Of a stretch of 64,000 bases of DNA, positions 26,661 to 30,845 are shown in pieces. The DNA comes from Terriglobia bacterium. Lineage in GTDB: Bacteria; Acidobacteriota; Terriglobia; 20CM-2-55-15. The stretch covers positions 77,620 to 141,619 of the forward strand of contig CBDCLE010000011.1 in NCBI GenBank assembly GCA_965218585.1, in the 5' to 3' direction. Under the pieces are notes generated by a model that saw only the letters and a list, made by a program, of their open reading frames with translations, was not told where the DNA came from and ran no database searches. The translations under genes were made by a program, and so were the position numbers. Position 1 is the first letter of the stretch. The number at the start of each line of letters is the position of its first letter.

Positions 26661-28091
26661 ATGGCTGGAATAAAGATAACCAAGCGGGCCAACGATTATT
26701 CAAGGTGGTATACGGATGTGATCGCCGCGGCCGAGCTAGCGGATCATACACCTGTTAAGGGCTGCATGGTGATCCGTCCGAACGGTTATGCTATCTGGGA
26801 AAAAATGCAGCGGGCCCTGGACGACATGTTCAAGGAGACAGGACACGAGAATGCGTATTTTCCGTTGTTGATCCCCGAAAGCTTCCTTGCGAAAGAGGCC
26901 GAACATGTCGAGGGATTTGCGCCCGAAGTAGCGGCGGTGACTCACGCCGGAGGCGTAAAGCTGGAAGAACCTCTGGTGATCCGGCCGACTTCTGAAACGA
27001 TCATCTGGCATGCGTATCGAAACTGGATTCAGTCCTACCGCGACCTTCCTATCTTGATCAACCAGTGGGCCAATGTAGTCCGATGGGAGATGAGGACGCG
27101 ATTGTTTCTCAGGACGACGGAATTTCTCTGGCAGGAAGGCCATACGGCCCACGCGACTTACGACGATGCCGAGCGAGAAACGGTGACGATGCTCGGAGTG
27201 TACCGTCGGTTTGCGGAAGAGTTCATGGCCGTGCCAGTGCTGTCGGGACTCAAGAGCGAGGCCGAGAAATTTGCAGGGGCGCATCACACCTACTCGATTG
27301 AGGCCATGATGCAGGACGGCAAAGCGTTACAGGCTGGGACGTCGCATCATCTTGATCAGGGCTTTGCGAAGGCTTTCGACGTGAAGTTTCAGAATGAAAA
27401 GGGAGAGCAGGAATATGTCTATGCGACCAGCTGGGGCGTGTCGACTCGTTTGATCGGAGCATTGATCATGGCTCATAGCGACGACCGGGGAATCGTTCTC
27501 CCGCCCCGGCTTGCCGCGACACACGTGGTCATTATTCCGATCTTCAGAAAGCCCGAGCAACGGGCGGCGGTCATGGAGCGTGTGGATCAATTGACGGCCG
27601 GCTTCTACGGCATCGACTTCAAAGTGGACGATCGGGAACAACACAGCCCCGGGTGGAAGTTCAACCACTGGGAACAGCGAGGTGTGCCCCTGCGGATGGA
27701 GATCGGACCGAAGGATCTGGAGAAGAACCAGGTGGTTCTGGTGCGCCGGGACAACACGGAAAAGAGCTTCGTGTCCCAAGACGGGCTCGCGGCCACAATC
27801 AGCGACGCGTTGAGCGGCATTCAGTCGGGCCTCTACCAGCGCGCGCTGGAGTTTCGTGAGGCGCACACGCAGGAAGTGGACGATTACGGGGCCTTCAACG
27901 AGATACTCGATGGCGAGGGTGGTTTTCTCTGGAGCCACTGGTGCGGCGCTTCGGAATGTGAAGATAAGGTGAAAGCGGAGACGAAGGCCACAATCCGCTG
28001 TATTCCCACCGAAGGTGAGGCCGAACCGGGGAGTTGCATCAGATGTGGCGAAGCGTCGGAACGCCGGGTCGTCTTTGCACGCGCGTACTGA
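26661..28091 (+). CDS. proS: Proline-tRNA ligase (eukaryote/archaea-like type)
   Basis: [35 protein letters not shown]-terminal Zn motif and ARAY end. Confidence 0.96.
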
Positions 28092-28195
28092 TCATCCCTG
28101 TTGAAGCTTACCTATCAACGATTGTTCGTCGCGTGGTCGCCGAAGTTCGATCTTCTTAATGTTGTCGTATGTGTTGCCATCGAAGACTACGCGGT

Positions 28196-29750
28196 TCTAT
28201 GGAAGGGGCTGTCAAGAGAAACACGTCCCCGCCGAGCGGACCACCGTACCCAACACTGTCGTGGCAGCCAGCCCCTGTCTCCGTTGAGACGAACTGTTGA
28301 TCCGGCATCGCAGAGAAGTCGATCACTCATCACAACGTGGTGTGGTTTCGAGAAACTGAAAAGCGCAAAGGGGTCGTGATTGCCGACCACGGTTCTATCT
28401 GAGCCTCGAGGGCTATCGCTTTTCCAGGTCGTGCGAGGGGGGATAGAGTATTACATGGGCCTTCAGCAAGCGCTGTGTGCCAACCGCGTATCGGATCCTC
28501 ACCCTCGACCCTACCGTTCCGACGCCTCACCGACGACGAGCGGTCGAATGCCTCGCGCTGTCGGCAGAAGTCTGGAAACGGCTATGTCGCCAAGTTCAGT
28601 TTCTTTGCGTTAAACGTGTCTCCTTTCTTCCACATCTTCAGTGCGGTCGCTGCAATCTTCCTCGCCAGTGTCAGCCGAGCCATCTCCTTACGCTTGCCGT
28701 CTTTCTGGAGCCCCTCCAGGTAGCTTTTCCAAGGTTCGGCCCCCATGCCTCCGGTCGCCGCCCCGATGAACACATCTTTCAAACGTCGGTTGCCGTTGCG
28801 GTTCAGTCCCCGCGTGGCGATCGGCTTTCGACGACGTACCACACGACTCCCTTCCTGCTCATACTCCGCACTCATGTGCATTGCCACGGCCAGACCGCTG
28901 TAGTTCCAGAGCTGGCGTTTGGTTCGAAATCGATGCGGGGTGTCCCCCGTCGCTACAATCAAGGCGCAACGTATCGGTCCCAACTGGGGAATCGTCTGCA
29001 ATATCCCCACCGCACGATGCTTGCGGCTCTCGGTTAACATCGCCAGCTTCGCTTTTTTTCTTAACCCTCTCAGATGATCCAGCTCCTCATACAACCATCC
29101 GGTACGCCGCCGTGCACCGGTATTGGCGAGCTGTTCGATCCAGTGTTCCCGCTGCGATGGGAGGTAGACGCCGTGGCCCGGCGTCCGGATCCCACGTCCT
29201 CGATACATTGCCTTGATCCGAACCATCGTCCGCTGCGTATCCAGGGTCAAGGTCTCATATCCGCGGACCAGTTCTTTCAACGTCCGCGTCGCATCGTGCC
29301 CGTGGTAGACCGACCGCAGCCATCCGGCCCGGAGCAGCTCGGCCAGTTTCAGGGCATCCACCCGGTCGGTCTTGGACCCGTCACTGAGCAGTTTGTTCCG
29401 TCTGGGATCACACACGATCACTTCGCTCACATATCCCCGGACCACGTTGTAGAGCCATTCGGCCTGCGTGGTTTCTTCAAACGTCACGTGCAGCTCACCA
29501 CTCAGACTCTCCAGCAAATCAATGATTGGCCCGGCCTGGGTCTCTACGATCTTTTCCCAGACCAGTTTGCCGTCTGCGTTTAAGACCATCACCACCGTCG
29601 TTGCCTGGTGCACATCCATGCCGATATACTTGGCCTGTTTCATTTACGTGCTCCTTTGTCTTTGAATTCAACGCAGCTACGTTGAATGGGTTGTTGTCGG
29701 GAGATTTTCCTCCTGGCAACAGCCGACAAAGGGGCGTCCTTCCTTATAGC
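28196..29750 (-). mobile_element. IS110-family (IS1111-type) element with long downstream non-coding region
   Basis: Ends defined by host-gene reconstruction; 2-bp core GT at 28194-28195 and 29751-29752; subterminal IR GGAAGG/CCTTCC. Confidence 0.85.
28582..29643 (-). CDS. IS110-family recombinase/transposase
   Basis: IGMDVHQ, FEET, KTDRVDA (DEDD RuvC-like); IPQLGP, YSGL, GNRRLK, LARK (Tnp20 domain). Confidence 0.93.
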   Translation of the reverse strand: MKQAKYIGMDVHQATTVVMVLNADGKLVWEKIVETQAGPIIDLLESLSGELHVTFEETTQAEWLYNVVRGYVSEVIVCDPRRNKLLSDGSKTDRVDALKLAELLRAGWLRSVYHGHDATRTLKELVRGYETLTLDTQRTMVRIKAMYRGRGIRTPGHGVYLPSQREHWIEQLANTGARRRTGWLYEELDHLRGLRKKAKLAMLTESRKHRAVGILQTIPQLGPIRCALIVATGDTPHRFRTKRQLWNYSGLAVAMHMSAEYEQEGSRVVRRRKPIATRGLNRNGNRRLKDVFIGAATGGMGAEPWKSYLEGLQKDGKRKEMARLTLARKIAATALKMWKKGDTFNAKKLNLAT

Positions 29751-30209
29751 GTAACGCTTGCGATTGGGTCCGTGCGTGGTCAACCCCCAGAGCAGGATGG
29801 AATCCCGACTGAAGGCCATCGACAGCGATTCGCGATTTCCCGAGAAAACGGGCTCGCGGGCCACCGCCCGGAAAAGAGTCCTCGAGACGAGACGCCACAT
29901 TACCAGCGGGAAAGAGTAGTTCAACCAGATCAGATGAGTAGCTCGTTCCCAGACAAGATCGCTCACCATTTGGTAGTTTCCGTCGGTGACCCATCGCTGA
30001 TTCTGAGTCTGTACGTCGACCTTGGATCGAAACTCTTCCGGTGGGCGTTCTTGCCAGTCAGGGCCCCAATACAGAGCATCGAGTTCGATGTGGTGTAGAT
30101 CGAGGGCATGTGCGAGGCGACGTGCGAGTACGGTCTTCCCAGAGCCGGTTGTGCCGATGATCGCGATTCGCATCACTGTTGAGGACCTTGCCGAAGAGTC
30201 AGTCTGTGA

Positions 30210-30845
30210 ATGAAGGTATCAAACGTGTCTGATGAATCACAGGTGTGGCTGCGGCAGTTTCTTTACCTCGGCCTGCTGACAGCGTTCGTGCAGGTATTGC
30301 AGACCACATCAGCATTGCTGTTGTGGATCGGGACGTCCTCGCCCATTCTGCTGGTTTTCGGGATGGATGCGCTTGTCGGCGGAACCCGTGAATTGATTCT
30401 GGCCAGACAGATTGCCCGGTACCATACTGCGGACGTGGATCCGGGGACGGACAGGGTGTTGTTTGGAATCGTGGCTGGCGGATACCTGTTGGTCGGTGCC
30501 ATCGCCCTTGTCTTGAGTGTCGGCCAACTCTGGGGGCGCCGGGCTCCGGAGGCGACCCTGCTGGGTCTGGCTCTGGCGGCGGCCTCCATGCTGATCGTTC
30601 CGATCATCGGGTCGTACATGAAGGCGCTGGCGATGGAAGTGCGCAGCCCGGCCCTGAAAGCTGCCGCGATCTTTACGTTCGGGAACTCCTACCTTTCGAT
30701 GGTGTTACTGATTGGCCTTCTGATTAACGCGGGCATGGAGCGATGGTGGGGCGACCCTCTCTGCGCCCTGATCATGTCACCGTTCATCATCTACAAGGGA
30801 ATTCAGATCCTGACCGAGCACAGGAGTGAAGAGTTTGCGGAATGA
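30210..30845 (+). CDS. Cation-efflux-like membrane protein
   Basis: About six TM helices; FGMDA and WWGDP resemble cation efflux TM domains. Confidence 0.55.
   Translation: MKVSNVSDESQVWLRQFLYLGLLTAFVQVLQTTSALLLWIGTSSPILLVFGMDALVGGTRELILARQIARYHTADVDPGTDRVLFGIVAGGYLLVGAIALVLSVGQLWGRRAPEATLLGLALAAASMLIVPIIGSYMKALAMEVRSPALKAAAIFTFGNSYLSMVLLIGLLINAGMERWWGDPLCALIMSPFIIYKGIQILTEHRSEEFAE

Follow-up and report, generated by a model that had tools for sequence, protein, structure and literature searches.

Within the window analysed here, a 64,000-nucleotide (nt) stretch of a contig from a Terriglobia bacterium, positions 28196–29750 of the minus strand hold an insertion sequence of the IS110 family, 1555 base pairs (bp) long and delimited between two AC dinucleotides. 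The explanation that best covers the observations as a whole, and that we regard as highly probable, is an active-looking IS110-family element with an IS1111-type layout, in which the gene for a DEDD/serine recombinase lies between a short left end and a long right end encoding a guide RNA. It is a well-supported new example of the known bridge/seekRNA-guided IS1111-type elements, the mechanism of which was described in 2024. An earlier reading of the letters without database searches (the sequence-only reading) had proposed an IS110/IS1111 element with guide segments in its 3′ non-coding RNA, and this is borne out by Pfam domains in the recombinase, by the consensus of 16 insertion sites and by covariation between guides and flanks. 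The element and its principal parts are as follows.

28196–29750, minus strand: insertion sequence
29644–29750, minus strand: left end, 107-nt 5′ non-coding region, with TATAAG (29743–29748) and the left subterminal repeat TATAAGGAAGG (29738–29748); relatives have homologous left ends
28582–29643, minus strand: transposase/recombinase gene, 353 amino acids (aa)
28196–28581, minus strand: right end, 386-nt 3′ non-coding region encoding the guide RNA (read from the sequence)
28371–28511, minus strand: bridge/seekRNA core, with an outer stem, a target-binding internal loop and a donor-binding loop (predicted fold; scaffold kept in 30 aligned relatives)
28483–28491, minus strand: target guide, 5′ strand of the loop, RNA AUACGCGGU
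28448–28454, minus strand: target guide, 3′ strand of the loop, RNA GUAAUAC
28402–28414, minus strand: hairpin P3 (AGCC-CUCGA-GGCU), between the donor-loop strands
28392–28398, minus strand: left-donor guide, RNA AUAGAAC

Target sites and probable target guides

A BLAST search of the genome gives 16 matches to the element, all of them full length, with identities of 99.87–100% and no fragments. The 353-aa transposase frame is intact in 16/16 copies, and a single insertion orientation is found across their sites. Read in the orientation of the transposase, the 16 sites give the consensus GTAAT-AC on the left of the insertion point and A(C/A)CGCGTAT on the right. The last seven positions of the left flank are G11 T9 A13 A8 T10 A16 C16 and the right flank is A15 C11 C15 G13 C14 G14 T13 A10 T11 (each count out of 16), a pattern far removed from chance. 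One AC stands on either side of the element, and the empty site has a single AC.

Two segments of the 3′ non-coding region correspond to this consensus. The first, AUACGCGGU, is the reverse complement of the right-flank consensus ACCGCGTAT and is complementary to the top strand of the core plus right flank. The second, GUAAUAC, lies ∼30 nt downstream of the first and is the same as the left-flank consensus GTAAT plus AC; being identical to the left flank and core, it is complementary to the bottom strand. Both in the window RNA and in every relative that yielded both matches, the one to the top strand comes 5′ of the one to the bottom strand, and in the relatives each segment matches the element's own right or left flanks, respectively. 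The sequence-only reading had already picked out ACCGCGTA (28483–28490) as a target guide and had asked whether other insertion sites have flanks resembling it; they do, at 16 sites, the right-flank consensus of which it matches. The second target guide, which that reading had not found, is now placed at GUAAUAC.

In both the minimum-energy and the centroid folds the two target segments form the two unpaired strands of one internal loop, closed by a ten-pair stem below and a hairpin above. A second loop follows, the 3′ strand of which holds AUAGAAC. Of the matches made by the sequence-only reading, ACCGCGTA and the AUAGAAC part of CGGTTCTAT lie in loops, and GCTAT lies largely in a hairpin stem.

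Two side observations concern these sites and segments. At copy C1:69269-70823 the right flank reads ACGCGTAT, with one C fewer than the usual ACCGCGTAT, and deletion of the element plus 2 nt still joins a 351-aa frame, so that exchange seems to follow the AC and not the register of the right-flank guide. Metatranscriptome contigs of run X17 that cover window positions 28422–28594 carry a variant of 95–99% identity that differs at 28455–28456, just 5′ of the left-target guide, and leaves the guide unchanged; these contigs do not show transcription.

Guide–flank covariation and the RNA scaffold

A profile search of genome contigs with an alignment of 25 relatives gave 79 loci with 46–69% identity, nearly all from Acidobacteriota/Terriglobia; a search for related loci with the single protein gave 18 pattern matches and no relatives. 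Both ends were located in 67 of the 79 loci. The flank before the left end finishes in AC (TC in one group, L033–L038), the left end reads GCnnTAT(A/G)AAAGG and the right end reads TTGAC...CCTTTTATAGA, followed by AC. The 48 distinct RNA segments have a common scaffold, in which the two strands of the first loop vary by species and match the flanks of their own element.

Guides and flanks were compared across 65 loci with anchors, which fall into 31 guide classes and 11 super-classes, with the sum of the longest matches as the score. The mean sum is 12.66 for a guide and its own flanks versus 6.38 for cross-class pairs. A sum of at least 12 is reached by 39/65 own pairs versus 4/3316 cross pairs, counts that overstate independence because the relatives share ancestry and the independent changes of guide and target number only ∼11. 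Two pairs of elements, L052 versus L076 and L045 versus L054, are ∼85% identical in DNA, yet have different guides and correspondingly different flanks; on this evidence the joint switch of guide and flank is natural retargeting.

One rival explanation needs no RNA: if the protein alone picked the site, the matches between the non-coding region and the flanks would be coincidental; single matches of 5–7 nt in 386 nt are indeed individually not rare, and the fold is thermodynamically ordinary. We consider this very improbable, since one conserved loop carries the two segments on its opposite strands, their sequences are the consensus read from 16 independent sites, and they change with the flanks in ∼11 classes, with the own and cross counts given above.

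The scaffold was assessed from an alignment of 30 sequences, in which compensatory changes are seen in stems P1, P1b, P2 and P3. P1, the stem at the base of the target loop, shows 96.9% pairing and has three pairs with compensatory changes; for the distal stem P1b the pairing is 86.7%. P2, the basal stem of the donor loop, has 5/5 pairs in 26/30 sequences, with the variants CGACC/GGUCG, CAACC/GGUUG and UCACC/GGUGG on direct inspection. The four pairs of hairpin P3 are 97–98% paired; pair 143–164 occurs as five pair types and pair 127–166 as AU in 21 sequences and GC in eight. The observed covariation score is reached by none of 500 shuffles, and slid registers score far lower.

Alternative pairings are present near the donor loop (28337–28434, minus strand; alignment columns 110–223), where GGUCG can pair with CGACC upstream or downstream; a downstream alternative partner for GGUUG is found in many relatives, not in all. 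AAAGC on the 5′ strand of the donor loop may in addition pair with GCUU ∼90 nt downstream, through four nearly invariant pairs with weak outer pairs. These competing pairings could be a multi-loop or a switch.

Some relatives lie beside or within other copies. L095 consists of a complete element plus AC, followed by an exact 275-nt repeat of the element's own 3′ part and then by a normal right target. The repeat begins just past the DNA encoding the left-target guide, and L075 has a similar, shorter internal repeat. L095 looks like an insertion into the guide sequence of another copy, which mimics the left half-site. In L046 only one AC (right end-AC-left end) separates the left end from the right end of another, related element, and the flank downstream of L046 fully matches the right-target guide; here the element seems to have entered a site that was already occupied, using no more than the right half-site and the core. 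Nested events of this kind make it conceivable that the internal matches are relics, namely captured target or end sequence without RNA function. We consider this, too, very improbable: the match to the right flank is antisense and that to the left flank is in sense orientation, each of them keeps its place in a scaffold with covarying stems, and relics would not keep following new targets in elements that are ∼85% identical.

Element ends, probable donor guide and core dinucleotide

The features at the two ends of the element and in the interrupted host gene are as follows.

28196–28206, minus strand: right subterminal repeat CCTTCCATAGA
28210–28215, minus strand: −35 hexamer TTGACA, 14 nt from the right end; TTGAC(A/T/G) at the same place in relatives
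29751–29752, minus strand: left-junction core AC, the target's copy
28194–28195, minus strand: right-junction core, AC in this copy, variable between copies
29753–30176, minus strand: 5′ part of the host gene, a small P-loop nucleoside triphosphatase (frame restoration and homologues; only sub-threshold Pfam matches, AAA_18/AAA_33)
28092–28195, minus strand: 3′ part of the host gene (frame restoration and homologues)

The left-donor guide AUAGAAC repeats, in sense orientation, the final 5 nt of the element together with the core and is a 7-nt match in most loci. Among 30 relatives it covaries perfectly at core position 1 (A 28, T 2) and at donor positions −3 and −1 (A 25, G 5 at each); the versions in relatives are AUAGAUC with a TC core, AUAGGAC with an element end ATAGG and AUGGAAC with an element end ATGGA. 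The sequence-only reading, all of whose coordinates are correct, had assigned CGGTTCTAT (28390–28398, identical to 28192–28200) as a donor guide. The seven bases GTTCTAT (RNA AUAGAAC) of this segment keep that role, covarying with the right end and core; the extra CG loses it, as relatives have CA or TA whatever the flank. GCTAT (28412–28416), which had been proposed for the other donor side, has to be abandoned: relatives have AUAG(G/C)CC, which finds no match in their left ends, and three GCTAT bases form part of the conserved covarying stem of P3, the hairpin that holds most of the match.

The left repeat TATAAGGAAGG and the reverse complement of CCTTCCATAGA agree at 9/11 positions in the window element. 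In the relatives the subterminal repeats are TATAAAAGG and CCTTTTATA, the TATG and CATA variants of which change in step. When the ends of the window element are joined, TTGACA is brought to TATAAG with an 18-nt spacer made up of 14 nt of the right end, AC and GC; these are the hexamers and spacer that the sequence-only reading had given for the joint, and a junction promoter is predicted in 41/41 distinct junctions, as TTGAC(A/T/G) with a −10-like hexamer 16–19 nt away (17 nt in 38 of them). No σ70-like promoter was found on the minus strand inside the element, and none was noted inside ISEc11 either according to the available part of Siddiquee et al. (PMC11187229).

By analogy with the IS621 bridge RNA and the seekRNAs of ISEc11, ISPa11 and ISKpn4, the recombinase would excise the element as a circle, joining TTGACA of the right end to TATAAG of the left end and so making a promoter, the transcript of which would yield both recombinase and guide RNA. 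In the RNA–protein complex the donor loop would hold the circle junction and the target loop the target, and strand exchange would take place at AC.

Deletion of 28196–29750 alone leaves a host frame of 144 aa, and deletion of 2 nt more gives a 175-aa frame that ends at 28092. The restored 175-aa frame aligns without gaps through the junction with the homologues L025 (40% identity) and L026 from two related genomes, which indicates that the empty site held a single AC; the claim that excision with one AC restores the host gene thus holds. Several further insertion sites in the genome likewise give long joined open frames once the element and 2 nt are deleted. A DNA query with the host-gene flank against 41 genomes (G000 plus 40 relatives) matched only the neighbouring gene and found no empty site at the DNA level, and homologues of host sites were therefore taken at the protein level. 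Contigs of other public runs part from the window at 28188–28194 and 29752–29754, which fits the ends given here and a conserved target. In run X1, for window positions 27900–30050, the contig depth is ∼32–78 over the element versus 2–3 in the flanks; this more than tenfold difference agrees with a multi-copy element in an organism carrying the locus. The prolyl-tRNA synthetase gene at 26661–28091 (plus strand) converges with the restored P-loop gene, which ends at 28092 on the minus strand, with zero spacer.

The two core dinucleotides behave differently among the 16 copies. At the left junction the dinucleotide is AC in 16/16, and at two sites homologues show that the empty target had AC. 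At the right junction it is AC in ten copies (the shifted site included), AA in five and GC in one (examples of the variable junction are C26:24068-25622 and C2:282713-284267). Two of the AA sites lie in conserved genes, one where 7/7 homologues have glycine and one where, of the six covering homologues, five have threonine and one has serine. At both sites the homologues fit AC and not AA, so that the variable dinucleotide is not target-derived at the 2/2 AA sites tested and comes with the element or arises at insertion; it appears to travel with the element. No copy has the opposite arrangement, with the target core on the right and the element core on the left. The few internal single-nucleotide polymorphisms do not segregate with the AA junction, which occurs with both alleles at about element position 1505, and simple inheritance along copy lineages therefore does not explain it. 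One reading of these 5–6 events is that only the strand exchanged first would be inherited, or that both exchanges would take place on the same (3′) side of the core. Either would fit the top-strand insertion proposed in the available part of bioRxiv 10.1101/2025.10.25.684509, which raises the question of whether integration is single-stranded or proceeds through a Holliday junction.

Recombinase and relation to known systems

The 353-aa recombinase matches Pfam DEDD_Tnp_IS110 (PF01548; 3.4e-17, 63.1 bits, cut-off 29) and Transposase_20 (PF02371; 3.9e-9, 37.2 bits, cut-off 21.3). It aligns to the solved ISCro4 transposase (9t56) with E = 1.6e-9 and to the IS621 transposase (8wt6) with E = 4.2e-7. 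Asp10, Glu56/Glu57, Asp93, Asp96 and Ser258 are in register with the acidic residues of IS621 and ISCro4 and their ...ESG-motif serine (PMC11208158 gives the IS621 residue numbers), and are invariant among 25 relatives. The residue after the catalytic serine is A or S in these 25 relatives, where G is usual; the C-terminal motif is GLAVAMHMSA, in relatives GLAV....S(A/S). The best identity to any IS110-family gene is 28% (675 matching plasmid records among 72,556), and no named IS1111-group gene is among the plasmid matches listed. Relatives in metagenomes number thousands, the best 119 listed being 69–82% identical.

Comparison with IS1111-type seekRNA elements (ISEc11, ISPa11, ISKpn4 and ISPst6) rests on the available parts of Siddiquee et al. 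(2024; PMC11187229) and, where cited, of Durrant et al. (2024; PMC11208160). Shared with those elements are a DEDD recombinase with a PF02371 C-terminal domain, a long non-coding region downstream of the gene (here 386 nt versus 107 nt upstream), subterminal inverted repeats, a promoter at the joined ends (predicted here) with no other promoter inside, target matches that overlap where the element inserts, the top-strand one being 5′ of the other, and natural retargeting of close relatives. Durrant et al. place the bridge RNAs of IS1111 elements in the right end. The subterminal repeats of 9–11 bp lie within the 7–17 bp of Durrant et al., where Siddiquee et al. usually find 11–13 bp, and agree with membership of the IS1111 group. 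The terminal extensions do not: the values reported for the group are 7 bp at the left end and 3 bp at the right end, at times 6 and 3 (PMC11187229), whereas here they are ∼2–4 nt on the left and 0–2 nt on the right, the core not counted. In relatives the left extension is GCAA (4 nt) and the right one GA (2 nt), which become 6/2 or 4/4 when the core is added to one side, and the window element has 2 and 0 plus the core. Further differences from the IS1111-type elements described are the motif GLAV....S(A/S) in place of GL.P....S(T)G, the Acidobacteriota hosts and a recombinase at most 28% identical to plasmid IS110-family genes and very distant in sequence from named elements. For the group a length of 330–350 aa is given; the recombinase here has 353 aa.

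With IS621, as described in the available parts of Durrant et al. and of Hiraizumi et al. (2024; PMC11208158), the element has in common two RNA loops for target and donor, a core dinucleotide within each target guide so that the pairings overlap, aligned catalytic D, E, D, D and S residues, and one core dinucleotide on each side after insertion. Unlike in IS621, the RNA is encoded in the right end and not the left, the guide order of the loop is reversed (its 5′ strand pairs with the top strand, that of IS621 with the bottom strand), AC, or TC in one group of relatives, takes the place of CT as the core, the repeats are subterminal and 9–11 bp instead of 2–3 bp, and no right-donor guide is recognizable. 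ISPpu9 with its RNA Ssr9 from Pseudomonas putida (PMC12288879, compared by description only and from the available part) is likewise a multi-copy member of the IS110 family; it has a specific repeated target, and the gene for its small RNA lies downstream of that for the transposase.

Several points, besides the shared ancestry of the loci compared, weigh against an RNA-guided element as described. The matches between sites and guides are imperfect, with means of 5.2/7 on the left and 7.25/9 on the right, and the window's own left flank matches at 4/7. The 141-nt core folds no more stably than shuffled sequences (z = −1.19; 22/200 shuffles fold at least as well), and thermodynamic stability was dropped as evidence. 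RNAalifold on the plain MAFFT alignment recovers only ten pairs; the fuller structure was taken from the fold of the window element itself, a choice that favours it. A scan of 27500–30500 against Rfam at E values up to 1 gave no match. RNA, circle and empty site were not observed directly, the data being assembled contigs only; the contigs of four runs hold no circle junction and no empty-site joint, and contigs cannot show rare forms, so that they speak neither for nor against a circle or an empty site. With NCBIfam NF033542 (IS110 family RNA-guided transposase) the recombinase scores 129.5 bits over 342/343 profile positions (E = 1.6e-37), under the curated cut-off of 140; this score marks a divergent member, not a non-member, and by it, by the 28% best plasmid identity and by the A or S after the serine the protein is a divergent one. 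Lastly, no right-donor guide was found by eye or in a column scan of the aligned RNA across relatives.

The sole signal for the right donor comes from a single column, which changes together with position 1 of the element (G-C in 28, A-U in two of one lineage). Of the candidates examined (complements of the left end, same-sense matches, pairing between the donor-loop 5′ strand and either repeat, and target guides lengthened in a handshake-like way), none is consistent across relatives. There are two options: a right-donor guide that is discontinuous or very short, or reading of the left end by the protein via the subterminal repeat. A three-guide arrangement would take up both options: the RNA would set the target through two guides and the right end through one, and for the left end either the protein would rely on the subterminal inverted repeat or the RNA would make a very short or discontinuous contact, with no fourth contiguous guide of the IS621 kind. 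In its favour, no aligned RNA stretch tracks the left end beyond the one column, the GCTAT match fails in relatives, and the subterminal repeats are conserved with TATG and CATA variants that change together. The available part of Siddiquee et al. (PMC11187229) suggests that recognition of the ends may differ between the two families, and that of Durrant et al. (PMC11208160) describes IS621 as pairing discontinuously with its right donor and many IS1111 elements as binding the donor through multiple loops. Left ends, however, vary little, so that a guide could exist without visible covariation; a short guide of 3–4 nt including the core is possible (AGCG opposite CGCT in the window), and failure to detect a guide is weak evidence of its absence. 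We hold the three-guide arrangement to be possible but doubtful. A wider proposal, which we think unlikely, is that this abundant Acidobacteriota clade uses a bridge RNA in reduced, mirror-image form, with two guides for the target and one for the donor, while the protein reads the left end via the subterminal repeat, and that its insertions record the geometry of strand exchange. Were this true, natural insertions would be field evidence on single-strand versus Holliday-junction integration.

RNA-guided recombinases of the IS110/IS1111 type have been a sought-after class of programmable DNA-insertion enzymes since 2024. The element leaves the known mechanism unchanged and adds a divergent, compact member, with a 353-aa recombinase and an RNA core of ∼140 nt. 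Its specificity is unusually readable, since one genome holds 16 independent natural insertions and a large family of relatives carries diverged guides and targets on a common scaffold. Together these form a natural data set for how far guide mismatches are tolerated, which half-site suffices and how a mismatched core is resolved.

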